Source: Eledone cirrhosa
Lineage: Eukaryota
Length of the DNA: 64,000 nucleotides
Reading direction: 5' to 3'
Assembly (NCBI GenBank): GCA_964016885.1
Contig: OZ024740.1
Location: 97,030,001-97,094,000, forward strand
Position numbers and translations under genes: made by a program. Of the stretch, positions 1-64,000 are shown in pieces. Position 1 is the stretch's first letter; each line of letters starts with the position of its first letter. Below the pieces are notes generated by a model. That model saw only the letters and a list, made by a program, of their open reading frames with translations. It was not told the DNA's origin and searched no databases.

Positions 1-9278
<9,278 letters not shown>

Positions 9279-20399: not shown

Positions 20400-22410
20400 A
20401 AACTCTATTGGCGAAGGAATTAGCCCTTCGATGTTGACAGCTAATGGTTACCTCCGTTCTATCGTTAATCGGTAGAGGTAGTGACAGAGTTATGTAATAT
20501 GCTTCCCTAACTCAGAGATCACAAGATTTTCTTCGTCCATTGAACGGTTGGGCCTTAGCTACGATATCCCATTTTAGTGAGTGTTGAACGTTGTTTAATT
20601 TAAGGTTTTTAATGAGCCTAGCTAGCGATGTCGAACATCAGTTGCTAGGGTCCCGGAACGAAAAAGAGTGCGCGTTATACCGTACCTTAAAAGGGTTAGA
20701 GGTAGACCCGATATTCGAAGCAATCTCAACCGTGCACCTATAGACTATGTTGGGTGTCAGGCAGTGTCCATTTAATGGGCGTGCATTGGGGTAACGGCAG
20801 TTGCAGTTGCTTCTGCGGTTAGTGAGAGTAGGGTTGTTTAACCTAAGCGGTTGGTCCGTGCTAGAAGGATTAGATGGGGGAGGTGTGCTACTAGAGTAAT
20901 TATTGGTGTAGTGGCGTGGTGTATTTGATAGGGATGGTGGTACCGCGGTGTGGGAGTTATACTGTCTTAGCTTATGATGGTTACTGAACGCGATGTGGTT
21001 AGCTAGGTTAGGTGTTGTGGAGAATGAGATTTTAATGTTATTTTTATTAAAGAATTTGTAATATCTATGGTTGGGGGGAGAGTTTTTGGATAGGGTAGAG
21101 AAGAAGCGTTTGGGGATATTAGTGGCTAGATTAGATGAGAATGGTGGGTTGAGCCAGGTGATATTTCTAGGTCTATTCCTTCTAGGGGTTCTAGTGGAGT
21201 TGGTAGGGGCCTTCCTAGGGTTATTATTACCTGGGGATTTGTTATTTGTCATCCCATTTCTCATTCCTATTCTAGGGTTGATTTTTAGTTTGTTACTTGG
21301 AGTGGGGAGCAGGCCGTTGCCACCATTAAAGTTCCCTGTATAGGTGCTGTTACTGCTAAAATTCCGGCGAATCTGGCTATATGCTAAGGTATTTCTAGTT
21401 CTCGTGTTAAGTTTATTATGGTCAGTTGCTGTTTTATGGCATTTAGGTATGTAATAAATTGATTGTTTATAACCAGATTCAGAGAGAGCCTTATTATAAT
21501 ATTGTGCGTGGTTTATAAATATCTCTTCATTTGCTGATAGCATTGAGATCCTATAGGAGACATATTTGATTACTGCTCTGATGACTGCCGGTGGGTGGAT
21601 AGAGTGTGGGCTAATATATGTGAGTATTTCACCTGGTTTATGGTAAGGGTTATAAAGGTTATTGTTGAGATCAAGGGTGACGTCTAGCAAGTTTACTACT
21701 TTATCGTTCAGCAGGATGGTGATAGAGAGACCGTTATTTTTGAAGAATCTATGAAATTGTTTCTTTAGCAAATCGAGTCCCCGATTAGTGCAATTGTGGA
21801 CGGCAAATAGGGCGTCTTCCCTGTATATTCCGCCTTGCATGGGTTGGATTTCGGCTCTGATGTTACGTAATAGGTAAATCCCAACTAAATCGGTGATTTG
21901 CGTGGAGTCACTTGAGCCCATCGTAATGTCAAAGTTGTCTGTTCTATCTTTTCTAGTCCAGAGTGCTCCGTTGAATTCAATGATAGTCTGCCTAGCCATG
22001 AGTATGATGTTAATATCATTATTGGTTATGTCCGAGTTGGTGGTGGCTAGGGCTAGTGCTTTGTTGAGCAGTTCCGGGGTTATTGACGCGTAATAGCTAT
22101 CTATATCAAATTGGATGAACCTCATAGATTGCTTGAACCTTAGATCGGAGAACCATCTGATGACTTGGCCGGTGTTGGACCACAACTTGTAGGTGGTATC
22201 ATCCCGTAGCCCAGGGATTATCCTATCAAGGATGTTCTTACTGATGCGGCCCAGGTCAGATGTGATTGGGCGTATGAGTCTAATGGATGGGTTCAGTAAA
22301 AAGTTTGGCTTGTGATACTTGAGAGAGAACCTTGGGGTTGTTGGTACATAAGAGTGGGTAAATCTATCCAAATGCAAGTCCTTAACCAAAGCCTGGGCTT
22401 TTCGGTTAAG
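20400..22410 (-). pseudogene. PLE reverse transcriptase + GIY-YIG endonuclease (Naiad-like motif pattern), disabled
   Basis: Motifs FIQFDIDSYYASI, DITMGSSDSTQITDLVG, GGIYREDAL (catalytic YRDD altered), WLNPPFS and CNC...PLNGHCL..NIVYRC. The frame reads on past TGA 20638-20640 as ..TSLA..LK..LKWDIV..CDL*VRE..INDRTE..SCQH. Confidence 0.9.
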
Positions 22411-22613
22411 TACGTTTACACCATAGTAAAAACCAATACATGGAACATTATATTATGTAACATTATTTTAATTTAAATCCCTTTGAGTTCCGATGAGCCC
22501 CTCTGTTTTTTAAATATGTTAATTATTTTCAACTGAACCAGATCAATTATGATATATAGTCATCTGATCGAGAAATATTATATGGAGTAGCGAAACAATT
22601 GTAAACGGACATT

Positions 22614-23371: not shown

Positions 23372-24315
23372 TATATGCATATATATATGTGTGCATGTAT
23401 GTATATATATATATACATACTACTGTACGTCGGTATACATATATGTATGTACGTGTACATACTTATATTTAAGTAACAGCCGTACTAAGATTGGGAAATG
23501 AAATATCGTTTCATTTTTTCCGTTTATCGTTTTCGGTGCACCCGGCCGATTAACCCACTCGATATGCAAATTGGGCTACTCAGCCGTTAATATGCATAAG
23601 GTAAGTATATACGTTCAACAATCTGGCAGGAAGGTATACGTTGCTGACGATAGCTAACAAGCTTGAAACTAGTACAGCGTTCCTTTGTCAGTGTTGAACA
23701 AACGAGCAACGGTGGTTGCTAGACACTACGGCTTAATACGGGATGTTTATTTACAAACACACCGAGCGTTATAATAAATGTTAGGTGAATCCATACGTGC
23801 ATATATATATGTGTGCATGTATGTATGTATATATATATATATACATACTACTGTACGTCGGTATACATATATGTATGTACGTATACATACTTATATTTAA
23901 GTAACAGCCGTACTAAGAGTGGGAAATGAAATATCGTTTCATTTTTTCCGTTTATCGTTTTCGGTGCACCCGGCCGATTAACCCACTCGATATACAAATT
24001 GGGCTACTCAGCCATTAATATGCATAAGGTAAGTATATACGTTCAACAATCTGGCAGGAAGGTATACGTTGCTGACGATAGCTAACAAGCTTGAAACTAG
24101 TACAGCGTTCCTTTGTCAGTGTTGAACAAACGAGCAACGGTGGTTGCTAGACACTACGGCTTAATACGGGATGTTTGTTTACAAACACACCGAGCATTAT
24201 AATAAATGTTCGGTGAATCCATACGTGCATATATATATGTGTGCATGTATGTATGTATATATATATATACATACTACTGTACGTCGGTATACATATATGT
24301 ATGTACGTGTACATA

Positions 24316-24318
<3 letters not shown>
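23372..24318 (+). repeat. Second, short array (~2.25 units) of the 420-bp HHR family
   Basis: Same unit. HHR cores CTGACGA at 23644 and 24072, both with loop II variant taacaa. Ends in (AT)n. Confidence 0.93.
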
Positions 24319-24365
<47 letters not shown>

Positions 24366-24996: not shown

Positions 24997-26369
24997 AAAA
25001 AAGTCCGTAATTTACAATTGAGGATTCAGTTAATTATTTTAGGTGGTCATGTCGTCTTCAGCAAGCATGGATACACGTGAGATATAGTTATTCTGGACCT
25101 GCAGAACATCCAGTATCTGATACCAATAGACAGGAAAAGAGGTGTACTATCATTAGTCTAATAGTTTCTTTATCCACTCAAATTGATGAGAAGCAACGTA
25201 GACCGCTGCCGGATCTCAGCACAGGATGCACAGATCAAGAACGTATGCTAAAACGCATATTATCGAACGCGCAAATGATTCTACAAAAACCACTGCCTTC
25301 ACGGTAGAAAAAATGAAGATCAATGATAGCCTCTGCATGGCTGCTTGATATTCTAGAAAAACTCCCACCCACGGCCAAATAAATTTCCTTCAAACCATTT
25401 AGTAATATCTTTGAAAACGAAAAGATGAAGGATTCCTTAAAAGTTAAAGTGGTGGTGGTGGTGATGGTGATAGTTGTGGTAGTGGTCATATGCTTCATCG
25501 TTGCGGTGATGTCGGTGGTTATCGGGGTAAAAAGAAGGAAGAAGATTGTGTTAGGGGTGGCAGTAAGAATGACAGTGCTTGACACGGTGGTTGTGGCAAT
25601 GGAAATGATGATTATTTGTCTATGCAATTTGCACCTTTTTGTTTTTGCAGCAAAAGATTATGGTGATGAAAATCCCGTAGATATTTAATGGCTCAAAATA
25701 GATTCTACTTTGCACTGAAGAATTAATTAGTCGATAAAACAGTACCGGTAAATTATTGGAGACGGCAACTCAAAGCTGTATCGTGTACAATTATGGAGGG
25801 CAGTAGGCTAAATTGTATGCAACGATTGCTGGTGCTCGCATGCTAGGGCACCAGTTTCATGTCATCGAAAGAAGGGAACTAAGATTAAAACCCAATTCGC
25901 TATCTTCAATTCTGTGTTTGTGTCTACCCTTACAGATAAACATGAATCTTGTGTAAGGCTCGAAAATATACAATGGTGAATGGGGTTCCTCCGAATGGTC
26001 TTTGACGTAACCTTATTTGGCAGGGTGCAAAATTGAGAGATTGGGGATTCGTTTCAGGTAGAGCCCCAACTTTTCAATATCCTGAGTCTAAAGCTCCGTT
26101 AAAACAGAAATATCGTTAGAAAGTTTAAGAAATGAATTACTAGACAGATTTACAGACATTATCAACAGACATGGAGATCCAGAAACAGAAGCAAGACAGA
26201 TAGTTGGATAACATCAATACGATCAGTGCGTGTTAGTCGTATAACATGAAGACGGTTTCATCTTTTAGGACCTTCTGGAAGGTTCATCTGAGGAATCAGC
26301 CCTAATCTCACTCCAATGGAATATGTGGGCAAAGAAAATGAATTGGAGAAAAGAAATATATATATATAG

Positions 26370-26615
26370 TCAGCTCGAGAGTAGCACAGAGGTGACAGAA
26401 GTTAGCTGAACATGCTCACCGACATCCAGAGTTGACACTGCACTCAATGCTCCTGTGGGAGCCACTGCATGGACACACTAGAAGAGAGCGACCGAGCTTC
26501 GCATATGTTGATGCCCTAAGGACAGACACTGGACTTTGGAGACGCAGGACATGGCAGCGATGACGAACTACAGAGACGGCTGTAGAGAACTCGTCCATGT
26601 ATCTCGGGAATTGTA
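26370..26615 (+). mobile_element. RTE-clade LINE 3' fragment
   Basis: Translates as R*QKLAEHAHRHPELTLHSMLLWEPLHGHTRRERPSFAYVDALRTDTGL, then after a frameshift DMAAMTNYRDGCRELV. This is the typical RTE C-terminal (AGH..R.....LLW.P.HG.R.RGRP...Y.D) pattern. Confidence 0.7.
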
Positions 26616-26810
26616 GCCACCCTATATTCATATATATGTACGTCAATACTCATCTTTTTCCATTTCTCCGAGGGCTCTTAACCCCACTATCAGGCTAAAT
26701 AATTTCTTTAATTTCTTTAGTCAAAATACGGCGTAAGCTTACATTTATAATAATTTCAAACCCATTCGCTCTTTCGAAAATATTCTTAATTGATATATAT
26801 ATATATATAT

Positions 26811-29800
26811 ATATAGACATAGAATATTCGAAAATATTCTGTATGTTTATAATAAACATTTTGAAGACCTAATCGCTATAGAATAGAATACGTCACGTAT
26901 TACAATTAGATTCTCGATAAAAGCAAGGGAAGTAATCTACGCGTTTCATTCTCGTTAGAAATCATCAGGACTACATATCCAGTGCTTTTATCGAGAATGA
27001 CACAGCTAGAGACTTATAGAATACTTAGCTGTGTACAGGAACTGGTTTGAAAGAGCGGTTGCCGGTCCGGCAGAAATTAGAAATTGGAATAAATGCTCTG
27101 AAATAGCGATATATATGTGAATATAGACATAGAATATTCGAAAATATTCTGTATGTTTATAATAAACATTTTGAAGACCTAATCGCTATAGAATAGAATA
27201 CGTCACGTATTACAATTAGATTCTCGATAAAAGCAAGGGAAGTAATCTACGCGTTTCATTCTCGTTAGAAATCATCAGGACTACATATCCAGTGCTTTTA
27301 TCGAGAATGACACAGCTAGAGACTTATAGAATACTTAGCTGTGTACAGGAACTGGTTTGAAAGAGCGGTTGCCGGTCCGGCAGAAATTAGAAATTGGAAT
27401 AAATGCTCTGAAATAGCGATATATATGTGAATATAGACATAGAATATTCGAAAATATTCTGTATGTTTATAATAAACATTTTGAAGACCTAATCGCTATA
27501 GAATAGAATACGTCACGTATTACAATTAGATTCTCGATAAAAGCAAGGGAAGTAATCTACGCGTTTCATTCTCGTTAGAAATCATCAGGACTACATATCC
27601 AGTGCTTTTATCGAGAATGACACAGCTAGAGACTTATAGAATACTTAGCTGTGTACAGGAACTGGTTTGAAAGAGCGGTTGCCGGTCCGGCAGAAATTAG
27701 AAATTGGAATAAATGCTCTGAAATAGCGATATATATGTGAATATAGACATAGAATATTCGAAAATATTCTGTATGTTTATAATAAACATTTTGAAGACCT
27801 AATCGCTATAGAATAGAATACGTCACGTATTACAATTAGATTCTCGATAAAAGCAAGGGAAGTAATCTACGCGTTTCATTCTCGTTAGAAATCATCAGGA
27901 CTACATATCCAGTGCTTTTATCGAGAATGACACAGCTAGAGACTTATAGAATACTTAGCTGTGTACAGGAACTGGTTTGAAAGAGCGGTTGCCGGTCCGG
28001 CAGAAATTAGAAATTCTATGTCTATATTCTATGTCTATATTCACATATATATCGCTATTTCAGAGCATTTATTCCAATTTCTAATTTCTGCCGGACCGGC
28101 AACCGCTCTTTCAAACCAGTTCCTGTACACAGCTAAGTATTCTATAAGTCTCTAGCTGTGTCATTCTCGATAAAAGCACTGGATATGTAGTCCTGATGAT
28201 TTCTAACGAGAATGAAACGCGTAGATTACTTCCCTTGCTTTTATCGAGAATCTAATTGTAATACGTGACGTATTCTATTCTATAGCGATTAGGTCTTCAA
28301 AATGTTTATTATAAACATACAGAATATTTTCGAATATTCTATGTCTATATTCACATATATATCGCTATTTCAGAGCATTTATTCCAATTTCTAATTTCTG
28401 CCGGACCGGCAACCGCTCTTTCAAACCAGTTCCTGTACACAGCTAAGTATTCTATAAGTCTCTAGCTGTGTCATTCTCGATAAAAGCACTGGATATGTAG
28501 TCCTGATGATTTCTAACGAGAATGAAACGCGTAGATTACTTCCCTTGCTTTTATCGAGAATCTAATTGTAATACGTGACGTATTCTATTCTATAGCGATT
28601 AGGTCTTCAAAATGTTTATTATAAACATACAGAATATTTTCGAATATTCTATGTCTATATTCACATATATATCGCTATTTCAGAGCATTTATTCCAATTT
28701 CTAATTTCTGCCGGACCGGCAACCGCTCTTTCAAACCAGTTCCTGTACACAGCTAAGTATTCTATAAGTCTCTAGCTGTGTCATTCTCGATAAAAGCACT
28801 GGATATGTAGTCCTGATGATTTCTAACGAGAATGAAACGCGTAGATTACTTCCCTTGCTTTTATCGAGAATCTAATTGTAATACGTGACGTATTCTATTC
28901 TATAGCGATTAGGTCTTCAAAATGTTTATTATAAACATACAGAATATTTTCGAATATTCTATGTCTATATTCACATATATATCGCTATTTCAGAGCATTT
29001 ATTCCAATTTCTAATTTCTGCCGGACCGGCAACCGCTCTTTCAAACCAGTTCCTGTACACAGCTAAGTATTCTATAAGTCTCTAGCTGTGTCATTCTCGA
29101 TAAAAGCACTGGATATGTAGTCCTGATGATTTCTAACGAGAATGAAACGCGTAGATTACTTCCCTTGCTTTTATCGAGAATCTAATTGTAATACGTGACG
29201 TATTCTATTCTATAGCGATTAGGTCTTCAAAATGTTTATTATAAACATACAGAATATTTTCGAATATTCTATGTCTATATTCACATATATATCGCTATTT
29301 CAGAGCATTTATTCCAATTTCTAATTTCTGCCGGACCGGCAACCGCTCTTTCAAACCAGTTCCTGTACACAGCTAAGTATTCTATAAGTCTCTAGCTGTG
29401 TCATTCTCGATAAAAGCACTGGATATGTAGTCCTGATGATTTCTAACGAGAATGAAACGCGTAGATTACTTCCCTTGCTTTTATCGAGAATCTAATTGTA
29501 ATACGTGACGTATTCTATTCTATAGCGATTAGGTCTTCAAAATGTTTATTATAAACATACAGAATATTTTCGAATATTCTATGTCTATATTCACATATAT
29601 ATCGCTATTTCAGAGCATTTATTCCAATTTCTAATTTCTGCCGGACCGGCAACCGCTCTTTCAAACCAGTTCCTGTACACAGCTAAGTATTCTATAAGTC
29701 TCTAGCTGTGTCATTCTCGATAAAAGCACTGGATATGTAGTCCTGATGATTTCTAACGAGAATGAAACGCGTAGATTACTTCCCTTGCTTTTATCGAGAA

Positions 29801-32726
29801 TCTAATTGTAATACGTGACGTATTCTATTCTATAGCGATTAGGTCTTCAAAATGTTTATTATAAACATACAGAATATTTTCGAATATTCTATGTCTATAT
29901 TCACATATATATCGCTATTTCAGAGCATTTATTCCAATTTCTAATTTCTGCCGGACCGGCAACCGCTCTTTCAAACCAGTTCCTGTACACAGCTAAGTAT
30001 TCTATAAGTCTCTAGCTGTGTCATTCTCGATAAAAGCACTGGATATGTAGTCCTGATGATTTCTAACGAGAATGAAACGCGTAGATTACTTCCCTTGCTT
30101 TTATCGAGAATCTAATTGTAATACGTGACGTATTCTATTCTATAGCGATTAGGTCTTCAAAATGTTTATTATAAACATACAGAATATTTTCGAATATTCT
30201 ATGTCTATATTCACATATATATCGCTATTTCAGAGCATTTATTCCAATTTCTAATTTCTGCCGGACCGGCAACCGCTCTTTCAAACCAGTTCCTGTACAC
30301 AGCTAAGTATTCTATAAGTCTCTAGCTGTGTCATTCTCGATAAAAGCACTGGATATGTAGTCCTGATGATTTCTAACGAGAATGAAACGCGTAGATTACT
30401 TCCCTTGCTTTTATCGAGAATCTAATTGTAATACGTGACGTATTCTATTCTATAGCGATTAGGTCTTCAAAATGTTTATTATAAACATACAGAATATTTT
30501 CGAATATTCTATGTCTATATTCACATATATATCGCTATTTCAGAGCATTTATTCCAATTTCTAATTTCTGCCGGACCGGCAACCGCTCTTCCAAACCAGT
30601 TCCTGTACACAGCTAAGTATTCTATAAGTCTCTAGCTGTGTCATTCTCGATAAAAGCACTGGATATGTAGTCCTGATGATTTCTAACGAGAATGAAACGC
30701 GTAGATTACTTCCCTTGCTTTTATCGAGAATCTAATTGTAATACGTGACGTATTCTATTCTATAGCGATTAGGTCTTCAAAATGTTTATTATAAACATAC
30801 AGAATATTTTCGAATATTCTATGTCTATATTCACATATATATCGCTATTTCAGAGCATTTATTCCAATTTCTAATTTCTGCCGGACCGGCAACCGCTCTT
30901 TCAAACCAGTTCCTGTACACAGCTAAGTATTCTATAAGTCTCTAGCTGTGTCATTCTCGATAAAAGCACTGGATATGTAGTCCTGATGATTTCTAACGAG
31001 AATGAAACGCGTAGATTACTTCCCTTGCTTTTATCGAGAATCTAATTGTAATACGTGACGTATTCTATTCTATAGCGATTAGGTCTTCAAAATGTTTATT
31101 ATAAACATACAGAATATTTTCGAATATTCTATGTCTATATTCACATATATATCGCTATTTCAGAGCATTTATTCCAATTTCTAATTTCTGCCGGACCGGC
31201 AACCGCTCTTTCAAACCAGTTCCTGTACACAGCTAAGTATTCTATAAGTCTCTAGCTGTGTCATTCTCGATAAAAGCACTGGATATGTAGTCCTGATGAT
31301 TTCTAACGAGAATGAAACGCGTAGATTACTTCCCTTGCTTTTATCGAGAATCTAATTGTAATACGTGACGTATTCTATTCTATAGCGATTAGGTCTTCAA
31401 AATGTTTATTATAAACATACAGAATATTTTCGAATATTCTATGTCTATATTCACATATATATCGCTATTTCAGAGCATTTATTCCAATTTCTAATTTCTG
31501 CCGGACCGGCAACCGCTCTTTCAAACCAGTTCCTGTACACAGCTAAGTATTCTATAAGTCTCTAGCTGTGTCATTCTCGATAAAAGCACTGGATATGTAG
31601 TCCTGATGATTTCTAACGAGAATGAAACGCGTAGATTACTTCCCTTGCTTTTATCGAGAATCTAATTGTAATACGTGACGTATTCTATTCTATAGCGATT
31701 AGGTCTTCAAAATGTTTATTATAAACATACAGAATATTTTCGAATATTCTATGTCTATATTCACATATATATCGCTATTTCAGAGCATTTATTCCAATTT
31801 CTAATTTCTGCCGGACCGGCAACCGCTCTTTCAAACCAGTTCCTGTACACAGCTAAGTATTCTATAAGTCTCTAGCTGTGTCATTCTCGATAAAAGCACT
31901 GGATATGTAGTCCTGATGATTTCTAACGAGAATGAAACGCGTAGATTACTTCCCTTGCTTTTATCGAGAATCTAATTGTAATACGTGACGTATTCTATTC
32001 TATAGCGATTAGGTCTTCAAAATGTTTATTATAAACATACAGAATATTTTCGAATATTCTATGTCTATATTCACATATATATCGCTATTTCAGAGCATTT
32101 ATTCCAATTTCTAATTTCTGCCGGACCGGCAACCGCTCTTTCAAACCAGTTCCTGTACACAGCTAAGTATTCTATAAGTCTCTAGCTGTGTCATTCTCGA
32201 TAAAAGCACTGGATATGTAGTCCTGATGATTTCTAACGAGAATGAAACGCGTAGATTACTTCCCTTGCTTTTATCGAGAATCTAATTGTAATACGTGACG
32301 TATTCTATTCTATAGCGATTAGGTCTTCAAAATGTTTATTATAAACATACAGAATATTTTCGAATATTCTATGTCTATATTCACATATATATCGCTATTT
32401 CAGAGCATTTATTCCAATTTCTAATTTCTGCCGGACCGGCAACCGCTCTTTCAAACCAGTTCCTGTACACAGCTAAGTATTCTATAAGTCTCTAGCTGTG
32501 TCATTCTCGATAAAAGCACTGGATATGTAGTCCTGATGATTTCTAACGAGAATGAAACGCGTAGATTACTTCCCTTGCTTTTATCGAGAATCTAATTGTA
32601 ATACGTGACGTATTCTATTCTATAGCGATTAGGTCTTCAAAATGTTTATTATAAACATACAGAATATTTTCGAATATTCTATGTCTATATTCACATATAT
32701 ATCGCTATTTCAGAGCATTTATTCCA

Positions 32727-32733
<7 letters not shown>
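26811..32733. repeat. Near-invariant 310-bp HHR tandem array: ~3.9 units on minus (26811-28015) joined to ~15.2 units on plus (28024-32733)
   Basis: Exact 310-bp period with only one substitution noticed (t>c at 30591). Orientation switch at ~28013-28024. (TA)n on both flanks. Confidence 0.97.
28187..28229 (+). ncRNA. Type I hammerhead ribozyme of the 310-bp unit (representative of 15 plus and 4 minus copies)
   Basis: gtagtc CTGATGA t ttct aacg agaa t GAAAC gc GTA gattac. Stem III is the palindrome ACGCGU. Stem I is extended by attctcgataaaagca/tgcttttatcgagaat (28163-28251). Confidence 0.9.
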
Positions 32734-32763
<30 letters not shown>

Positions 32764-35206: not shown

Positions 35207-36938
35207 CTTAAAACAATTAACAAAAAAGAGAATAAGACAACGAACGAAGACAAAACAAAACGAAAGCATTTTTTAAGGGGAGATCTTAAAAAAAATTAAG
35301 AAAAATAAAAATACAAACAAAGGGCACAGAACTCCATGGTCATCGGCTGTTCGGATGGAATTTGGCAGTTTCGACATCTACCAACGGCACTGCTGGTCCA
35401 GCCGGGCTCAAAGCTACTGACATTAACCGAATTTGTGTATTTGTATATAAAGCGATATACGGTATGTTTATAAATAAATATTAGAAAGATGTAACTATGA
35501 ATTTTTGAAGCTGATATCTAGCGCTATCAGGTGGATTCCATCAAAAGTACGCGCAGGTACTCTGCAGCCAGTGATCTGTTTCTGACTAATGGTCATTATC
35601 ACGACAGTGTTCTCTCTCCCCGCTCTCTTCTGGAATCCAACGTAGGCAAAATCATATAGTTTAATGCCTATGTACATAGGCTAATAAGCCTCATTTGTAT
35701 ATATAGTGTTCTGCCGGTTCGGCCTGAAAATAAAATAAAATTCGCCCGGACATAGCTGTTTACAGATAAGTATGTGTAATTTGTCTATCTTGTTAACGAC
35801 CATAAGTTTGTGAATTGAAAAATAAATAATTCAGCTCAATTCAATAGATTGAGATGTTTTTGCGGTCAGATATTTTGATCAGGCTTCTTATGCTTAGGTT
35901 GCTTGAGAATGTATATATCTCTAGAGAACGAACGATACGTTATTGACCCGTCAGTGATATGTATGAGATGTTCTATATATATTTTTACTTCTCTGAATAA
36001 GATATCTTAACGATCTATTTTCATTGAGATGTTATGTATATTCGTGACGAATTTTAATTATTTATAATTAATAATACTGCTCCTAATAAATGCTATTAAA
36101 ACCCGTATTGATTGCTATTTCTAGCGACATTTTAGGCCTGTACTTTTTTCCGTTCATACAAACATATACTTGTTTATTGGTTCACACATGCGTGCGTTAA
36201 TATTATTATTTAATTTGATCGTACCATATTGGATGGATGAGGAATACAATCTCTCTTAATAGGTATCTATTCTTATACTAAACAGAAACCCTCCGAAGAG
36301 GAATATGGTTCAAGTAATGATGACCATATCGATCTATTTATATGGTTTCATTTATTCTGCGATTCAGAATCTGCACGAAGAGTGGAAGAATTTGATCTGA
36401 TAATGATGACCATCTCAATCTATTGCATTGGTCTGACTAATTTAGTTTTCCATTCAAAGATTGTTTTTACGGTCAGCGATTCTGTTCAGGCTTACTATGT
36501 TTAAGTTGCTTGAGGTTGTATATACAACTAGGGGACGAAATTTTTTCGACCCGTTAATGATATGTATGAGATATTCTGCATGTATTATTACTCCTCTGAA
36601 AACGATATTTAAACGAGCTATTTTCATTGAGATGTTATGTATATTCGTGACATATTATGATTATGTATAATGAATGTATATATAAAGGGGGGTTTATTCT
36701 AATCTCGAAATACACAGAGCACAGTCAACTGTGGCATATTCTGTTGTTGAAAGTATAACACTTCTCTCAACCAACAGCCGTTGCACTGGTACACTATTAG
36801 CCACTAAGAAAGAGTGAAACACAAATTTGACCTCAGCAGAACTTGAACTCAGAGAGCAGATTTGTAAGATATATCAACGCCATAATCATATATATCAAAG
36901 AAAAATAGAATCTGTGTTGCGACGAATGGAATTTATTG

Positions 36939-37033
36939 GACACATTACAATCGTTTCTATGGCCACCAGCTCGAGGCACGATCGATGTGTGATCGAACCT
37001 GACTCTGAAAATCGCAAGGTCCTCAGATACGTC
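36939..37033 (-). ncRNA. Degenerate long-stem-II hammerhead motif (solo pLTR remnant)
   Basis: Minus strand reads gacgtat CTGAGGA ... GAAAC gatt GTA atgtgtc, followed by AATAAA. The base of stem II pairs poorly. Confidence 0.5.
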
Positions 37034-37057
37034 TTGAGTCTACGAAGCATATTTTCC

Positions 37058-37125
<68 letters not shown>

Positions 37126-37364
37126 ATATATACTATTTATAGTTATGTATATAGTATAAACAACCATAAACAGCAAGGTCAGTAATATCTTAATTACCTT
37201 ATTACCAGTAAGAGAAATAGCTCAATGTATGAACATCGGTTGTTTTACAGAGCAGTTAAATAATAAATTATACAATTATTAAAGTTGTGTTCAAATCATC
37301 TAATAGCTGACAATCGTTGCTTCCAAACTATCGTTTGGAGTCATCGGAGCATTATCAATGTTTG

Positions 37365-39035
37365 CACATCAATTCTTACTACACCTCTATTTCGCCTATC
37401 CTATTAAATAAGGCTCTTATTAGGGCCATGAACAATAGCGACCTGACTAGATCCCAAATTGATGTCATACTTGCGGCCCGAAAAACCATAATCACATTTG
37501 AAGAACAATTATGGACCCGCAAGGATTAGCATAACAACTTCGACATAACCATGGGATGTAGTGACTCGGCGCAGGTCACCGATTTGGTGGGCCTATACCT
37601 ACTTAATGAAATCCATAAGAACCTACCCTACCTCAACGGTGGTTTATACCGCGATGATGCGCTTCTTCTCATAGACTATAACAAATTTAATATAGAAAAA
37701 ACTAAGAAGCAGTTACACAAAATGTTCAAAACCTACAACTTACGTATCACCTTAGATAAAAACACTAAAAACGTCAACTTCTTTGACGCTACCCTTAGCC
37801 TCGACTCTAGAGTATGCACACCATATCATAAACCTAGCGAAATAATAATTTATGTGAACACCAACTCTAACCACCCTAAATCCATATTAAACTCCATTAC
37901 CAAAGGAATATCTAATAGAATCTCTAATCTATCATATAAGGAAACTATATTTAACAATAATTTACAATACTATAATGAGGCCTTAGCTAAATCAGGACAT
38001 AAGAATGAGATTGAATTCCTACCTATAAAATCACATAGTTACAACATTATTTCTCATAATATGGCCATGAGGAAAAATAGTAAAAACACTGCCCACTATA
38101 ATTCTAGGACGAAGATTAATACCAAACGTAACTCGCACCAAAGTAAACACGATAATAATAATTTAAACAGGGATATGAATACCTAAAAAAATAATAATAT
38201 AGACAAAAATAGAAGGAGAACTAATACATTATTCAATCCCCCTTTCAATCTAAACGTCTGTACCAACTTGCTTAAGGCTTTCTTCTCAATCTTAGAAAAA
38301 TACTTCCCAACCGGCCACAAGTACCGTAGCCTTATCAATAAAAATACAATTGAAATATCATACTCTACCATACCTAACATAGCATACCATATAGCTAGTA
38401 GTAATAAAAGGAAGAATAATAGGTATTTCCAACTAATTAAAACACAACAGGAGGTAAACTTAATACCTGTAAACAATAGTAGTAATAATAGTAATAATGA
38501 TAATAGCATTAATGAAATCAATAACAATACGAATGAAAGGCATCATTACGTTAGCAACCAGAATTATTCACAACATAGGAACCGGCAAGCTAACACCCAG
38601 AATAAATGTAACTGTATAACTAATAGAACTTGCCCCTTAGGTAATAATTGATTAACCAAAGACATCATCTACTCATGCATCGTCAACGCAAACAACTCTT
38701 CTAAAACATATATAGGCTCTACTTCGAACAACTTCAAGACGAGATACAACTCGCACCTCCACTCTTTCAAGAAACACAATCTAGCCAGCTTCACTTCTTT
38801 ATCTAGCTACATACACTCTCTAAAAACTAGGAATAGACCGTTTACACTCCAATGGGAAGTAATAGGTAGGGCCGCATCGTATAAACCACCGAATAAATTG
38901 TGTAATCTCTGCCTTCTGGAGACCCATACTATAATCTTTTCGAAACTAGGCCCCCTGAATAGAAAGTCAGAGACATTTTCCTCGTGCAAACACCGGTACC
39001 GACACTCGTTCCATAACTTTAAACCTAGCTGTTAG
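37365..39035 (+). pseudogene. PLE RT + GIY-YIG in one frame with three in-frame stops
   Basis: INSYYTSI, DITMGCSDSAQVTDLVG, GGLYRDDAL, FNPPF, CNC..CPLGNN*L..IIYSC..TYIGST..FKTRYNSH..CNLCLLE..LNRKSE..CKH. Stops are TAG 37527, TAA 38184 and TGA 38649; the natural stop is 39033-39035. Confidence 0.92.
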
Positions 39036-40362
39036 TATACAACAATGTCAGATTTGAATTCCCCACCACCATTGAAACTACACATCTAGGACTTAGCAAC
39101 ACCCACAACCACAAACCCCTCGACCAACTCTTTCTGCTACACAACTCCTATGCATCTATAACCTTATGCTCTGCATTAACAGTTAGAATTGGACATAGAG
39201 TTACCACCTTGTGATATAACTACAATAGATTAATTATATCTTACACAGTAATGGATATTTGGCACTTGGTATGTAGAGACATTTAATGTAATGTATGAAG
39301 ATGAACTATGTGTGCATTTGAAATTGTATAATTAAATGCTTAAATTACACAACACAATAGTAATAAAGTATATATATACAGTTATAATTAAATATAGAAT
39401 GTAATAGCATTCTATATTAGGGATTGTATTATTGCACATATGGCATATCTACTATGACATATTAACAGCTGTATAATCCTTCATAACATATACCTTGTCC
39501 AGTAATGAATATATAACAACCTAAAGAAACCGTTAATGTATGATAGTAGAATACACTTTATTTAAAATCAGGCATAAATATACAGGGTTATGTAACAGAG
39601 ATCCAATGGTATCACATTATATTGTGTATTAGAACTAAGAATTTTAATAACTGAATTGAACTTAATTAGCTAGTTACCTCCCCTTACGCATTAGCTCCCC
39701 TTATTCACTTCCGGAAATTAACGATTGAAAATTTATCGGTCGATCAAATATGGTCTATGAATATGAATTCATTAAGACTAATTTACAATCCATTGCACTA
39801 ACTAACTTAAAACACTCAATATAAACATTAACTGAAATTTAATTCAACATATGTCATGGAAAAGTATGCAAAAACTGTATGTTTCTCAACACACATTAAT
39901 TTGAAAACCATCAACATTCAACACCCACCATAGACTCTAATACATTAACATTTTTCCTTCAACTGCAGTATTTATTCATCTATATATGCATAATAGCGTT
40001 GCTTGTCTCCTTCTCATGTATATGACTTACGCAGTCACATTATCCATACGCCTGCATATGATTTGTTATCGCACTCTTCCTTTCTCAAAACTGCTTCCTC
40101 AATGCCTCTTTAATATTTGGACTATTCCCTTGTTTTAAATGTTGCATGTATTCCAGTCCGTGCTTTTGATTTTGATTTTAATTTTAATTTTGATTTGAAT
40201 TTGAACTTGAATGTGTGTACAATTACTGTACAATTCTCGTAAAATATATGTCACATTCATTTCACCCTGTAAATACGAAGCTGTTGCTCACAAAATCAAT
40301 TTATATGTATCTATATTATTGTTCAATTGGATAGGATGGTAATTATATGTGCAAACATTGAT

Positions 40363-40832: not shown

Positions 40833-41028
40833 CGAAACAATTGTAACACGCAATAAATTGAGTCCACATGCATCACTGATTTTTCGTTTTCTTTATACTA
40901 TCTACATTCTAATCTGCTGAATATTGAATGCTAATTTTGGCATACCGCCTATGGAAGCACCATAGTTACCATTACACACAAGTATATACTACGCTCCTCC
41001 ACAAGTAGAGCGCTTACAGCGATCCGCG

Positions 41029-42630
41029 ATGGAAAAATTCAATTACTCTTCTTCCCTGAAAGACATACCGATGCCGTCTGATAACACGTACATGGGCCTG
41101 CTGATATACCACACCAACTCGTTCATCAGACGCATCAGTTGGCGCCCATTTCACCACGACAGGCGGACACAACAAGACGCGCCCAACGCCCCTCAGGACC
41201 GCCTAAAGCGGATATTTAGATCGACAAGACCCCCACCGCATAATGCACAGCTGGAGGAATTTGAAAACCGTATAATCAACATAATTCGTAACATCAAATT
41301 CCATAGGAATAGTGCACGGCGGACGAAATATCTCAAAAGTCTCAGCTCCACCATCAAAACCATGGAAAGATGTCAGGATTTATTGTGCTCTCGGACAAAA
41401 CTGGTAATGCATACGTGCTTAACCGTTTTACATACAACGACTGCCTCGGGAAAGAGATTAGGAAAAACTATAGGACCACAGGACAGACAAATTTAGATAA
41501 AATTAACGCCACGGCAAAAAGTATACTGACGTGGCTAACACTAGATGATAGGACCGAGGTATATGTACCTAGAAAACCACGGATATCTATTAAGAACCAT
41601 AAATTAGACTTTAAAACAAAACTACCTGTTAGGTTAATAGCACCCTCCAAATCTGATCTGATTAGGCAGGACCAGCAAGAATATTATAGATCGGATACTA
41701 CCCGTACTTAGAAACAAAACTAAGCTTAGCCTATGGACCTACACTAAGGAGGTAATTGGTTCTCGTTAATAGGTGTCAAACAACAAGTAAATGTTATTCA
41801 GTTAGACATAGATAGCTATTACGCGTCAGTATCTCCGATACTAGTCAAAAAGGCCCTCATGAGCGCCATGGCCAGATCTAGCTACACTAGGGACGAGACC
41901 AACCTCATAGTAGTAGCCAGAAAGACGCTAATTAGATTCGAAGACAAGTTATGGGAGAGGAGGAACAGACCCTAGAGTGTCGATATAATCATGGGGTCGA
42001 GTGACTCGGCGCAGGTGACCGACCTTGTGGGGATATATCTCATCCATAGGCTAACGGAAGAGATCCCGGGGATCGGAGGTGGAATATACAGAGACGACGC
42101 ACTTTTCACCTTCTGTTCCCTTAACTCCAGTCAGATGGAGTGTATCAGGAAGCGCATATCGTATTTTTTTAAACAACACGTCTTATCCGTGACAATAGAC
42201 CCTAGCACTAAGACGGTCAATTTCCTGGACGTTACCTTGGAAATGAATACGGGCATCCACAGACCGTACAATAAGCCCAACGAAATCCTGCAATATGTGA
42301 ACAGGCAATCGAATCACTCTCAGTCAGTCATAGAAGCCATAGTTAAAGGGGTATCCAAACGCGTATCCACCCTGTCCTCGAACGCAGAAGTGTTTAAACA
42401 GCACGCCAAATATTATAATGAGTCACTGCGCAGGGCCGGTTACACAGACACCATACTCTATACCCCGGACAGAGTAGAGCCGAGTGATGAGGCGTGAAGA
42501 AATGCCAATAGCGGAGGCGCCTCCTTAGGTAGAAGAAATGACCCGGTAACAGTATCCAGGAACACTGATTGCAATACAAATGGCATTAATGACGCAGGAC
42601 CGACCGGAGGTAGTACAAAGGCACCCATAG
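41029..42630 (+). pseudogene. PLE N-terminus and RT, frameshifted, lacking the endonuclease; 5' UTR/pLTR tail at 40832-41028
   Basis: MEKFNYSSSLKDIPMPS..FIRRISWR N-terminus, SDKTGNAY, RLIAPSKSD, QLDIDSYYAS, MGSSDSAQVTDLVG, GGIYRDDAL and NFLDVTL. The upstream 40832-40985 segment matches the pLTR at 45672-45822 and 50470-50538. Confidence 0.9.
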
Positions 42631-44080: not shown

Positions 44081-45070
44081 AAAACCAGCACGGCCCGCCG
44101 AAAGGCGCTGCAGTGCCGGAAAAGTCAACTTCCAGCTACTAGTATGCTGGTAAGCTAGTACAACGTATTTCCAGACGGATAGAGTTGGTCCGTAGCTTTG
44201 GTTAGCGACTACTCTAGTGCTTGCAACACGAGCAATTTGGGCGAGGGTATAAATGCCAGGTTGGTATCTGGCGCAGTGTAACCCACCACACGGAGGAGAA
44301 AGCACCTTCTTCAAGACTTGGCTGGTAAATTCTTTCACATGTGTGTAGTAGTGGCGCCCACACACATTATTAGCTTTTTGAAAAGATGATGGATTTCGCA
44401 ACTAACCGCACCGCGGTTCCTGAATTCTGGAGCATGAGAGTGAGATCCGTCATCTCGACAGTAGTCGACGAATGAATGAATGAATGAATGTTTGGCAATA
44501 TACCGTATGTTTAATTAAACACATTTAGAAGACCATACACTATCAGTTTTAAAGTAATGACTATGTCACTTATTTCTTTTCAGCGAAAGAAGGGATAGAA
44601 GCTGACGGTCTGTTTCACGCTGGTTGGCGTTCATCACACCCACGGACTCCCCTGCTTCCGACGAAAATTATAAAAGCTGGATTCTATAGAATTCCAGTAA
44701 TAACCAGGTGCTGATTATACAGAGCGATTACCGGTCCAGCAAAAATTAGGTATTAGGATTGTTGCCCCGAAATTGTCAAATCTCTTTCGACACACATCCT
44801 GTGGCCTCCAGAACAAAGGAGGGACACATAATGAAAACCTAGTCACCGAGGAGGTCACGGAATGTGTGACGAAAGAGCTTTGACAATATATAAACAGCCC
44901 TCCGGTTCTAAAACCAACCAACCAACCAACAGGAAATGTATAAGGAAGTGAATTGAAAACCAACAGGATCGTGTTTTTATTGACTCCGTGACCCTCCCAC
45001 AGAAATAACAATATCTGTTTCAACACATGTTTTCAGATAAAAAATCTTGCAAAACTAAATCCAATACGAA

Positions 45071-45123
<53 letters not shown>

Positions 45124-45127
<4 letters not shown>

Positions 45128-45627
45128 TGTATATATAATGTATTTTGCAATACACTTTATGCTTAATTAAAAGCATTTTGAAGACCGTATGCTATTGTTT
45201 TAGAGTAGTAACAAACTAAGCATAAAGTGTATTGCAAAATACATTATATATACATTCATATATATATATGGCTATTTCAGAGCTCCAATTCTCATTTTTA
45301 ATTTCTGCCTGACCGGCAAACGCTCTGTATAATCAGTTCCTGATTATTTACTAGAATTCTATAAGAATATAACATCAGTGATCTCAGTAGACGGGGGGTG
45401 GGGGGTGGGGAGTAGTTAGCCTTGATAAGCATCAAAAAATGCAGAAACAAGGCCTTGTCGGCTTTATCTACACCTGTTTGCTGAGATTAAAGTAAGTGAG
45501 TTTGTCACTACTCTAAAACAATAGCATACGGTCTTCAAAATGCTTTTAATTAAGCATAAAGTGTATTGCAAAATACATTATATATACATTCATATATATA
45601 TGGCTATTTCAGAGCTCAAATTCTAAT

Positions 45628-45630
<3 letters not shown>
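45124..45630. repeat. Diverged relative of the 310-bp family (~335-bp unit) with short inverted 5' arm and degenerate HHR at 45418-45463
   Basis: Shares gctatttcagagc..aatttctgcc.gaccggcaa.cgctct and ggtcttcaaaatg with the 310-bp unit. 45124-45212 is inverted relative to ~45505-45600. HHR remnant agcc TTGATAA gcat..atgc a GAAAC aaggcctt GTC ggct. Another relative lies on minus at ~44510-44750. Confidence 0.65.
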
Positions 45631-45671
<41 letters not shown>

Positions 45672-46825: not shown

Positions 46826-48910
46826 ACAGGCCTGCATAGGCCTGGCAACCACACTGCATGGTCCGCTGCAACTGGGACCATGGACAGGAAATCGACAAAT
46901 CCGGATGGGACACACGCCAGAGAGCACACCCAGTCTGGTTGTAGTCGTACAGCACCGACAGCAGCATAACACAGACCAAAGGGGAATAGACGTATAGCTG
47001 ACCACATAGAACGACGTAACTTTATAACTGTAGGGCACAACACCCTGAGAATCTTGAGAGGGCCATAAGAGATCAAGGCCCGGACATCGGATGCATAAGA
47101 ACTGACAACAGAACTTGTAACTGCAGAGCGGGCACCCGGTGCCCCCTACAGGAAAAATGCCTGATGAAGGATCTAATATACAAGTGTGTGGTTACAACCC
47201 AAAACGCGCATCGCACCTACATCGGCGCAACATCCACGACCTTTAAATCGCGGATGTATAATCACACGAATTACTTCAGGGACAGTAGCAAAAGGCACTC
47301 CACTAGGTTAGCCAACCTGGTGTGGGACGTGAAAGACCAAGGCACTCCGTACGCCTTGGAATGGAGTATCGTTCGCAATGCGAGGTCATATTCGGCCGGA
47401 AGTAGAAAGTGCCGATTATGCCTACACGAGGCCATGGAGATAGTCAGACTGAAAGATGACGCGGTCAACCTGAAGTCTGAAATTATCATGACCTGCAGAC
47501 ACCAGAGAAGATGCACATTTGCAGCATGGAATCCTCCAGGTGGCGCAGCCCGGTGGCATGGGAACGGGTACGCACAGACCCGAACGGCCCAACGGGATTA
47601 AGGGACCTGACGCCATGCCCCGATGACAGTGTGCGACCCGTGAGGCAAACATATGTAAACCAGGGGCACACCCGACCGAGCACACAATATTGGAAGATAC
47701 ATCGCCTGGGCTTGGACCGGCTAACACGTTGCCCACGGCCGCCCGGTCCGATACCCCAAACAAATAGAACAGCACACCCCAGTCACGGTGCCATGCCCCA
47801 TGGCGACCGGGCCGGGCGTCCCCTTGAATGTATATTCCGTAAATCCTGACTATACACTCTCGACATGTTCCACTTTGGAACAATTATTATTACTGTCATT
47901 ATTGTTCTATTATTGTTCTGTTACTGTTCCTTGTTCTATATACGGACCCAAGTTTGCACCTCATACTACTTGTGTGTAGTATATCACATGGATACACTCG
48001 ACTTCTCCTGTACCCCTCCCCCACGTTTTTTATTTACCCCTTTTTTCATGTACATATTTATGAAGTTACATACAGATTTTAATGTATCCTAAAATATTGT
48101 AAATTTATTTATTTTATTTTATTTTATTGGCCTATTGTGTTTATATTTGGGTGTTTTTAGGTGTGGACCTGTGCGTAGGTATATGTATGTGTGAGTGTAT
48201 GTAGATATATATATATATGGGTGTGTATGGGGGGTGTATATGGGAATGTGTACGTATATTCATGAGCTTATGAGAGAGTGTTCGTGCAGGCATGTACACT
48301 TATGTATGTGGCAGAGTGTGTGTGTACTGGTAACATGTATCCAAGTACAACCTGTCTCATGGTCGGGTCGTTGGCGACTAAACTGGCAACCCCACCAAGG
48401 TTTCTTGGTGAGGAGGGTGACTTTGGACATCCTGCAGGACTAAAAACAAAACCTGTCAAAGGGCAAAGGTGCTCTTAAGAGTCAATGGCCATCCAAAATC
48501 ACCGGGAGAGATGACCCCTTAGCCTTTGTCAAGGCAGAATTCTAGGAGAAGGAAAACTCTGTTATGACACCTGCAACCCTGTTGGTATCCAATGATGTTG
48601 ACTTGTTCTTCTTTTTGGTAAATATCATCTTGGTTAAGAGAGTGGGACTGGCTTTGTGCAGTGCCTTTGCTCACTATAAAAGCATCACAGCACAGGCATT
48701 GCTTTATATCTGGAGATCTCTCTGCACTTGTCGTCACATGGTACCATGGGCCCAGCACTATGTGTCAATAATTATCACAAGTGTAGTCTTTGTACCAGAG
48801 TTTACAAGTCGCTGGCTGGACTAAAAAGTCACACTCATTCAGCGCATCAGTAGGGGTACTCCTAAATGGATATAAAGTAGTGGCCGTACTCGAGAACGAG
48901 TTGGCAGCCA

Positions 48911-61435: not shown

Positions 61436-62340
61436 TTAATTAGGTTTATAATATTTAAATGTTTTTTTTAGTTTATGATTACACGATATAATTAATTCCT
61501 GTCGTTTATTTAATAAGATATCCTTAGACTTCATTATTTCAAATAGTTCTTGGGAACATAATCTACATTCATTTCTATTATTTTGATAAGGGGTGGCTCT
61601 TTTGAGCACACTCCAGGTCAAATCATATTCTATATTCTTATTTTTATAACTATTGATTTTTTCTGCTAGAGATGTTGTATTAGCCAGTGCGGCATTTTTA
61701 AAACTATGCTTGTGGGTATTAAACCTTGTCTTAAAATTGTTAGAGGTAGCTCCTATATATGAGCAAATAGAATCTTTAGTTTTAACATTACATTTATAGA
61801 CTATGTTGTTAACAAGACAATTCCCTTTTAATGGGCAGTTTGCTTTGTTTCTACAATTACATCCTTTCGTTAATTCTGTATTTGAGGAGATATTATGGTT
61901 AATTTGATGTACTGGTGGTATACTTGTGGTTTTCTTACATTTATATGCATTATATGCACTTATATTTTGTTTTATGTTATTTGTTGTAGAATATGAGAAT
62001 TTAACTGTAGACCTATTTAAGATTTGATGGTATTTGTGGTTTGGCGGGAAGTTTTTCTCAAGGATATAAAAAAATTTTTTAGCAATATTATCCTTAACTT
62101 GTAAATTAAAAGGAGCATTATACCAAGTAACCTGTCTATTACGGTTTCTATGTTGTTTATTATTTTTATTATTTTTATAGGTTGTATCGTGATTTTTACT
62201 AGGAGGATTAATGTTAATGATCTCACCACAACTATTTTTAGTTATATTTGTAGATTTAGGTGTTTTATCCTTTTTATTAGGAGTTATATTATTAATATTT
62301 ATTAGAGTTGTATGATGAGTAGTTTTTTGAGAGTTACTAT

Positions 62341-62342
<2 letters not shown>
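61436..62342 (-). pseudogene. PLE linker + GIY-YIG endonuclease, 5'-truncated at (AT)n
   Basis: WYNAPFN..NFPPNHKYH..KFSYSTT..CNCRNKANCPLKGNCL..IVYKC..SYIGATSNNFKTRFNTH..CRLCSQE..LNKRQE..CNH. The first ~50 aa of the listed ORF come from flank and microsatellite. Confidence 0.92.
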
Positions 62343-62376
<34 letters not shown>

Positions 62377-62914
62377 CTTTATCTTCATCAGCATCGCTTT
62401 CATGCTTGATTTCCACACCTGATTTCCACACCTGCACAGGTGTGGAAATCATGTGTGTCAATTTTTTAGGCATAACTGACATGGAGACCATTTTCTGCTC
62501 ATACTTTCCATAAGCGTGTTGCTTTCTGTAGCTGAATCACCTTCCTAACACCAACAACCTTAAGGATGTAATAACAGTACTTCAGTGTGTGATGCAGTTG
62601 AAGTGGCAACTAAATTATTTCGACTGTTCCGCTTATTTTCTACAACTTCTGAGAGAACACTAGAGAAGTGGTAGTTTTCATTGTTTCAGATGCATGTGAT
62701 ACTGTAATAACTACAAGGAAAGATCTGCAATTTATATGTAGCTCCAGCAAGTTCAAGTCCTTACAAATTAGATTTCATTGAGGAAATATTTGTAAAATAC
62801 GAAACCCACTTTCTTAATGGTTGAAACCATTAAGCTAGAATGAAGCAAAATACACAGCAAGCAGATTTCAAACAAGAGTATTCACCTTATCTGCGTATTT
62901 AGATAAATATGCAA

Positions 62915-63724: not shown

Positions 63725-64000
63725 TATATAAACGGAAAAAATGAAACGAAATTTCATTTCCCACTCTTAGTACGGCCGTTACTTAAATATAAGTATGTAC
63801 ACGTACATACATATATGTATACAGACGTACATTAGTATGTATATATATATATACATCGGCCGGGTATTGGTATATATACATCGGACGTACATTAGTATGT
63901 ATATATATATAAATCGGCCGGGTGCACCGAAAACGATAAATGGAAAGAATGAAACGAAATTTCATTTCCCACTCTTAGTACGGCTGTTACTTAAATATAA
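63725..64000 (-). repeat. Rearranged fragments/start of another 420-bp family array on the minus strand
   Basis: aacgaaatttcatttcccactcttagtacggc.gttacttaaatataa occurs twice, and aatcggccgggtgcaccgaaaacgataaa is the reverse complement of the unit. Confidence 0.9.

Follow-up and report, generated by a model that had tools for sequence, protein, structure and literature searches.

Positions 26811 to 32733 of the window, the whole 64,000-nucleotide stretch of Eledone cirrhosa DNA analysed here, hold two arrays of a non-coding 310-bp hammerhead ribozyme unit that stand back to back and face outward into (TA)n tracts. We read this locus as a two-armed insertion of a non-LTR hammerhead retrozyme, in which both ends of a break in (TA)n would have primed reverse transcription at two sites, A and B, on a predicted circular RNA, likely with the enzyme of a Penelope-like element (PLE). 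Based on sequence comparison, we give this reading a probability of roughly two in three (about 0.65). The architecture, a rule governing the outer ends, haplotypes shared between arms, the types of junction and a pattern of variation that keeps the RNA structure are observed.

The two arrays comprise 19 copies in total and 5,915 bp (the copy number is that of the assembly). The arms diverge, such that the 3′ end of each arm in the RNA sense is its outer end and abuts (TA)n. Unit phases are numbered from the predicted ribozyme cut, with position 28224 as phase 0. The features of the locus are as follows.

26793 to 26810, no strand: left (AT)n target tract, immediately preceded by a high-copy repeat (about 26360 to 26775) and assigned from sequence and the read depth of the flanking repeat.
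26811 to 28015, minus strand: inverted arm of 3.9 units, free of mismatches to the unit and with 4 hammerhead cores; on the outside it ends at site A (phase 126), at the centre at phase 162.
28013 to 28038, no strand: centre junction, a 3-nt microhomology common to both arms followed by a 13-nt unit-derived duplication.
28024 to 32733, plus strand: forward arm of 15.2 units with 15 cores; it ends at phase 110 at the centre and at site B (phase 169) on the outside.
28163 to 28251, plus strand: one type I hammerhead, with the predicted cut between 28223 and 28224 (phase 0).
28349 to 28362, plus strand: site A within one unit, phases 125 to 138, AU-rich; one outer end of each two-armed insertion.
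28386 to 28393, plus strand: site B within one unit, phases 162 to 169; the other outer end of each two-armed insertion.
30591, plus strand: the only substitution of the array, T>C, at phase 197, outside the ribozyme.
32732 to 32759, no strand: right (TA)14 target tract, assigned from sequence.

A preliminary description of this DNA had reported that all 19 hammerhead cores of a 310-bp array were intact, with one substitution noticed in 5.9 kb and (TA)n on either side. We recovered all 19 of the 19 cores, found 30591 T>C to be the sole mismatch to the unit in the whole array and located tracts at both outer ends. The same description treated the locus as one array, but the copies do not form a single head-to-tail run: the minus strand carries 4 of the cores and the plus strand the other 15, in two arms. 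Its proposal of a recent rolling-circle retro-insertion holds in part. A recent insertion into (TA)n, with a circular RNA as the likeliest source of identical multimers, is retained, but one pass of reverse transcription cannot yield opposite arms and two priming events are needed. The right flank of the locus is single-copy in the assembly. Because both ends sit in (TA)n, no target-site duplication can be read at this or other 310-bp insertions. The left flank (26774 to 26786) holds 13 nt identical to the unit near phases 100 to 112, about 25 bp from the insertion point, a match that may be due to chance.

The 310-bp unit carries a type I hammerhead, a predicted self-cleaving motif whose core is intact in each copy. 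Stem I consists of a 6-bp proximal and a 16-bp distal helix around an internal loop, stem II of 4 bp closed by U.U, and stem III of 2 bp with a palindromic tip. The hammerhead region has a fold z-score of -4.5. When folded as a circle, the 310-nt unit is predicted to reach -67.8 kcal/mol with 60% of its bases paired (z -4.5 vs 150 shuffles); the opposite strand likewise folds well (z -5.3). The Rfam hammerhead families gave 0 matches at the gathering score and none at E<=10, so the hammerhead call rests on the core motif, the stems, the fold z-score of -4.5 and the pattern of variants. The same U.U pair has been reported in the axolotl retrozyme HHR_Amex2 (PMC7229834), and hammerheads with a short helix III and the type I layout are described as cutting as dimers, which spares the monomer circle (PMC4209133). 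The unit is approximately 35% GC, lacks a long terminal repeat organisation and has stops that break all six frames. The array contains no open reading frame (ORF), and none of the reverse transcriptase (RT) and GIY-YIG coding capacity of an autonomous PLE.

To place this locus within its family, copies were counted by exact-pattern matching across the 3.0-Gb genome. The exact 43-nt core occurs 4,033 times and its reversed control 0 times, so the locus is neither a chance arrangement nor unique. On the forward strand, unit ends running into (TA)n number 648 at site A and 688 at site B, from which we estimate about 1,300 insertions or more of the 310-bp unit. A sample was assembled from the loci of the first 100 listed matches each of the core, A-end and B-end patterns, all lying in the first 120 Mb of one contig (C1). 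After five segments were dropped (3 partial duplicates at region edges and 2 diverged fragments), 68 insertions including this locus were analysed.

Two outward-facing arms are present in 57 of these 68 insertions (56 directly, the 57th after the fetched sequence was extended). Among the remaining 11, one runs into an N gap, two have a very short second arm by eye and eight have no second arm. The outer ends cluster at phases 124 to 138 (site A) and 162 to 169 (site B), and a single call at phase 117 is the effect of a local variant. Every two-armed insertion pairs one A end with one B end (57/57; 55 initially and 2 on completion), the two being separated by 24 to 47 nt, most commonly by 35 or 26 nt. 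The A- and B-end lists are complete up to 72.9 Mb, a stretch that includes 37 two-armed loci and in which any A/A or B/B pair would have shown up; A/A pairs beyond that point could be missed. Read from the sequence, site A offers 8 to 10 nt of complementarity to (TA)n and site B 1 to 2 nt. Arms average 4.2 units on the A side and 5.5 units on the B side, with a roughly exponential length distribution (Kolmogorov–Smirnov (KS) p 0.07) and a longest arm of 45 units. Two hallmarks of PLE insertions are present in this family, namely an inverted truncated copy on the 5′ side (57/68) and a tail of the 30 to 40 bp type at one end only (57/57 heterotypic); the A/B offset matches the one-sided PLE tail (PMC8557442) and also the pair of start sites used by a purified PLE (PMC11167929). 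Within the window, older relatives of the unit with about 72 to 80% identity lie at 45074 to 45662 and 44472 to 44781, the former keeping two arms between (TA)n tracts with A- and B-like ends.

The preliminary description had named a collapsed assembly consensus as the alternative account of the near-identity of the units. The broader proposition that identity or inversion is an assembly or read artefact, from consensus collapse or chimeric fold-back reads, is in our judgment hardly credible. Individual loci retain their own haplotypes, lengths, singletons and junctions, and the 420-bp array in the same window retains 8% divergence between units. Raw reads from three reduced-representation runs of other samples with the same species label contain the same alleles and opposite-strand joints. 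One such joint occurs in all three runs, with 98 to 133 reads from one start place each, and one of the three runs also shows free unit ends, at both A and B, that lead into (TA)n. What an artefact has in its favour is that these runs leave the junction of the present locus essentially uncovered; contig depth there is mixed with that of other copies.

The locus is young but typical of its family. Ranked by sporadic variants, it comes 13th of 40 family insertions of at least 2 kb, 12 of which have none at all, and it is accordingly no longer the best candidate for current activity that the preliminary description had made of it. As a side observation, 17 other organism labels contain 20 to 32% of the query words. 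Three of them (X4, X9 and X14), compared with window 26200 to 27130, each have one 340-nt unit contig with 0 to 2 differences, the neighbouring repeat in low-depth pieces and almost nothing of the unique flank. This fits trace DNA and was not used as evidence for horizontal transfer.

Both arms of an insertion carry the same haplotype. Among the 38 loci in which each arm spans at least 2 units, the arms agree in 37 (permutation mean 6.4, maximum 16 in 100,000), and with the reference haplotype excluded they agree in 25 of 26 loci vs 3.4 expected. In total, 59 loci hold 26 distinct fixed haplotypes, only 7 of the 68 insertions are mosaic, and 74 singletons were counted in 195.8 kb. Eleven two-armed loci hold an allele that is fixed nowhere else in the sample and fills both arms, in up to 22 units. 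Such locus-only alleles imply a bottleneck of one unit followed by copying into many units. In one array (L054:1409-8278), two variants reappear after seven units within one arm, and each arm has a single, out-of-register copy of a third.

The fixed alleles also respect the predicted RNA fold. At paired positions, fixed alleles keep the pairing in 6 of 6 cases and non-fixed, sporadic alleles in 0 of 15 (Fisher p 1.8e-5). The 12 core positions hold 0 fixed alleles vs 2 non-fixed, a contrast that alone is not significant. The 43-nt centre of the ribozyme contains 11 of the 27 fixed alleles (p 5.5e-4). One-base insertions two bases past the predicted cut and ligation site (phase 1 to 2) are fixed in L041, L047, L092 and L096, and raw reads show them too. 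Because fixed alleles keep pairing and sporadic ones break it, the copies that go on to spread are those that kept the RNA fold.

These haplotypes bear upon the nature of the template. The same A/B double priming by a PLE enzyme might have taken place on multimeric RNA that was transcribed from a homogeneous parent array and stayed linear and uncut, which we regard as unlikely. The ribozyme does look weak, with its 2-bp stem III and the U.U in stem II; axolotl retrozymes with such motifs also give multimeric RNA (PMC7229834), PLEs are transcribed as tandem RNA (PMC11167929), and the arms of L082 share a variant in register. A linear template, however, could not produce daughters longer than their parents and could hardly fix a new allele in all units, yet locus-only fixed alleles fill 14 to 22 units across both arms in L054, L058, L061 and L080. 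Singleton alleles recur between loci in 3 cases among 74, approximately the chance level. In register-matched comparisons 43 of 50 are unshared, and 6 of the 7 that are shared stem from one near-fixed allele.

A second account would have a short two-armed PLE-type insertion lengthened and homogenised later as DNA, by unequal exchange, gene conversion or extrachromosomal rolling-circle copying. Variants are spread or block-duplicated in some arrays (L051, L054, L055 and L086), and the older 420-bp array of the window has reached at least 69 units, as such growth would allow. Against it, arrays of up to 18 units carry no variant whatsoever, and 12 partly spread alleles in 7 loci stand vs 74 singletons; singletons rarely spread, so exchange is slow. 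Growth as DNA also fails to account for the contrast between fixed alleles, which respect the RNA fold, and sporadic ones, which break it, and we hold it to be distinctly improbable.

The inner ends of the arms reveal no fixed point on the template. They spread across the unit (KS p 0.08), with 3 of 110 within 5 nt of the ribozyme cut vs 3.5 expected; in the absence of a pile-up, the template shows no end at the cut. Of 55 centre junctions, 27 have a 1 to 5 nt microhomology, 6 are blunt, 21 contain insertions and 1 has a 16-nt overlap. Most insertions of 5 to 25 nt contain a unit-derived stretch. Short insertions of this kind are expected of microhomology-mediated end joining. Two junctions are unusual in themselves: at L041:3100-3799 the centre junction is duplicated to give four segments with the same microhomology twice, and at L055:3599-3870 the centre holds 272 bp of unrelated GC-rich sequence.

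The junctions also speak to the origin of the inversion. Self-priming at palindromes has been proposed for PLE inverted junctions (PMC3846280), and in 7 loci the inner ends deviate from symmetry by no more than 20 nt, as a fold-back would leave them; alternatively, one arm may have been copied from the other. The inner phases of the two arms are, however, unrelated, since these 7 loci, out of 55, are as many as chance would give (7.3 expected; KS p 0.83). Among 54 loci the longer arm is A in 22 and B in 28, so that neither is always the copy, and sporadic variants are mostly unmirrored. Nor does fold-back explain why the second end in (TA)n should be fixed. Both models were rejected, and we consider them very improbable.

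We infer the circle, its cleavage, the PLE enzyme and the double priming from these observations, and the favoured reading, two primed starts on a circular template, would proceed in five steps. Arrays would be transcribed, cut into monomers by the hammerhead and ligated into circles, as the motif, the variant pattern and published retrozymes suggest. A PLE protein would then cut both strands of a (TA)n tract. One 3′ end would start at site B with almost no pairing and the other would anneal to the AU-rich site A, 24 to 47 nt upstream; the positions of these ends are observed. Each reverse transcriptase would circle its template for a random number of turns, to yield the observed lengths (mean about 5, up to 45 units). 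Finally, the complementary DNA (cDNA) ends would be joined at the centre by a repair pathway that leaves the observed microhomologies or short templated insertions. Both enzymes may work on one circle or on two sibling circles. Purified PLE protein has been reported to cleave and extend both strands and to start at two internal sites (PMC11167929).

A bolder version is that both subunits of a PLE dimer copy one 310-nt circle simultaneously, each primed by one target end at a fixed site of its own, so that the two would follow and displace one another through as many as 45 turns. Asymmetric double priming would then be the general integration mechanism of PLEs, explaining tail, inverted copy and retrozyme arrays together. 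We advance this version tentatively and with more doubt than confidence.

Putative autonomous PLEs exist in the same genome, in which near-identical intact 832-amino acid (aa) RT/GIY-YIG ORFs are present, with a monomer of 4,199 bp. Their place in the genome is as follows.

L222/L223 (G000:C4:159048574-159058254), L224-L228, L231, L234, L236 and L237: young PLE-like family with 832-aa ORFs.

In the atlas clusters nearest to these ORFs the families HTH_animal, GIY-YIG or RVT_1 are found, in most cases on fewer than half of the members. From the families of these clusters and the motifs of the ORFs themselves, we read the family as a putative endonuclease-bearing (EN+) PLE. Twelve of its insertions were mapped (chosen for long ORFs), of which 9 are two-armed. 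All 9 end in (TA)n, with one end at each of two sites 164 nt apart. In one insertion, two almost complete copies stand back to back and enclose a 99-bp piece of internal sequence.

Several observations weigh against the favoured reading. The 832-aa family has no sequence in common with the 310-bp unit, and its monomer contains no recognisable hammerhead (Rfam likewise returned nothing). Its arms nevertheless reach 1.36 units, so arms longer than a unit do not by themselves need a circle made by a ribozyme. No autonomous PLE with the 310-bp unit as terminal repeat was found in 120 PLE loci screened, of approximately 36,000 to 40,000 candidate places per protein search; among 8 PLE-like proteins scanned, Pfam named only one GIY-YIG fragment. 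Ribozyme cleavage was found to be dispensable for insertion in vitro (PMC11167929). If two enzymes shared one 310-nt circle, each would need to strip off the cDNA of the other on every turn. In L082 the shared variant lies in turn 1 of both arms and is absent from turn 2, which fits a multimeric template better; in L067 the outer parts of the arms carry different haplotypes; and some arrays show later exchange.

Another family of type I hammerheads is also present in the window. Its units measure about 420 bp, and its ribozyme shares the U.U at the foot of stem II and has a palindrome in stem III.

Window 1 to 9030 (continuing for at least 19.7 kb upstream), 23376 to 24322 and 63728 to 64000: arrays of the family with a unit of about 420 bp, assigned from sequence.

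The first of these arrays has at least 69 units at about 92% identity. Genome-wide, the family has 2,232 exact ends of one kind. Of its first 20 listed loci, 19 were mapped and 11 of these have an inverted arm; 9 of the 11 arms end at a second site 55 nt upstream and 0 at the same site. Broken Penelope-like RT/GIY-YIG frames of several families also lie in the window, at 20638 to 22452, 37530 to 39035, 40966 to 42497, 47020 to 47601 and 61436 to 62536.

Much of what frames these observations is already in print, namely retrozymes, the hypothesis of circle-to-tandem cDNA copying, PLE inverted copies, their tails and two-strand extension. We found no report of two-armed retrozyme arrays, a strict rule of one site per end, shared arm haplotypes or this pattern of selection, in a literature search that covered mostly open-access papers and their main texts. 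Passages of PMC11722881, PMC7761336 and bioRxiv 10.64898/2026.09.17.752431 have nothing on inverted arrays. Two questions stand open in this literature: how inverted copies and the tail on one side of PLEs arise, for which PMC3846280 suggests self-priming and PMC8557442 asks for mechanistic study, and whether genomic arrays are copied from retrozyme circles (a hypothesis in PMC7229834 and PMC4209133). The approximately 1,300 young insertions, with their marker haplotypes and multi-turn arms, form a record of both. The family speaks for a pair of fixed sites at which the target primes and against fold-back, and it shows that each round passes through a single monomer and selects on the ribozyme fold. 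The reagents for a direct test are at hand: the 310-nt template with its start sites mapped, (TA)n as target and, in this same genome, an intact PLE ORF.

Compared with known systems, the 310-bp element resembles the metazoan non-LTR retrozymes, which are tandem, non-coding, AT-rich units of 170 to 400 nt with one type I hammerhead each and which co-occur with PLEs in the genome (Cervera and de la Pena 2020, PMC7229834; Li et al. 2026, bioRxiv 10.64898/2026.07.22.740005). Both of these sources already hypothesise that a PLE enzyme copies circular RNA into tandem cDNA. Supplements aside, neither text speaks of inverted arms, two end sites, (TA)n targeting of the arrays or shared arm haplotypes; the word 'inverted' is absent from the first and appears in the second once, within the title of a reference. 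Li et al. suggest local tandem amplification, unlike the insertion we propose. For published retrozymes, expression of circular RNA has been demonstrated, whereas the 310-bp unit is known here from DNA.

In twin priming by L1, two target ends prime on the RNA and give an inverted and a forward segment joined at the centre. One start lies at the poly(A) end and the other at an internal site that varies, so that each segment represents its own part of a linear RNA. In the present family neither site varies, both are internal, and each arm covers the whole unit many times; L1-type twin priming was ruled out by these two fixed internal ends and by arms that overlap in the template many times over.

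The element also resembles EN+ PLEs, with their head-to-head inverted, 5′-truncated copy, an extension of 30 to 40 bp at one end only and insertion into (TA)n, where target-site duplications are masked (Craig et al. 2021, PMC8557442; Arkhipova et al. 2013, PMC3846280). Non-autonomous, multicopy head-to-tail PLE derivatives are noted in Chlamydomonas by the same sources, which leave the mechanism of the inverted copy open or propose self-priming or endonuclease resolution. Unlike the EN+ PLEs so described, the 310-bp element has no ORF, both its arms are long multimers, its inverted arm is nearly obligate and its junctions show no excess of palindromes. The Poseidon element PAc in vitro (Frangieh et al. 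2024, PMC11167929) likewise has both target strands cut and extended, two internal start sites that define the tail, AT-rich targets and a predicted dimer; it differs in its linear template, in start sites for which no difference between the strands was seen and in initiation without primer–template homology. In the 310-bp family, by comparison, the two ends of an insertion use one site apiece, and site A can pair with the target. Double priming, if true, would explain the inverted ends of Penelope-like elements.

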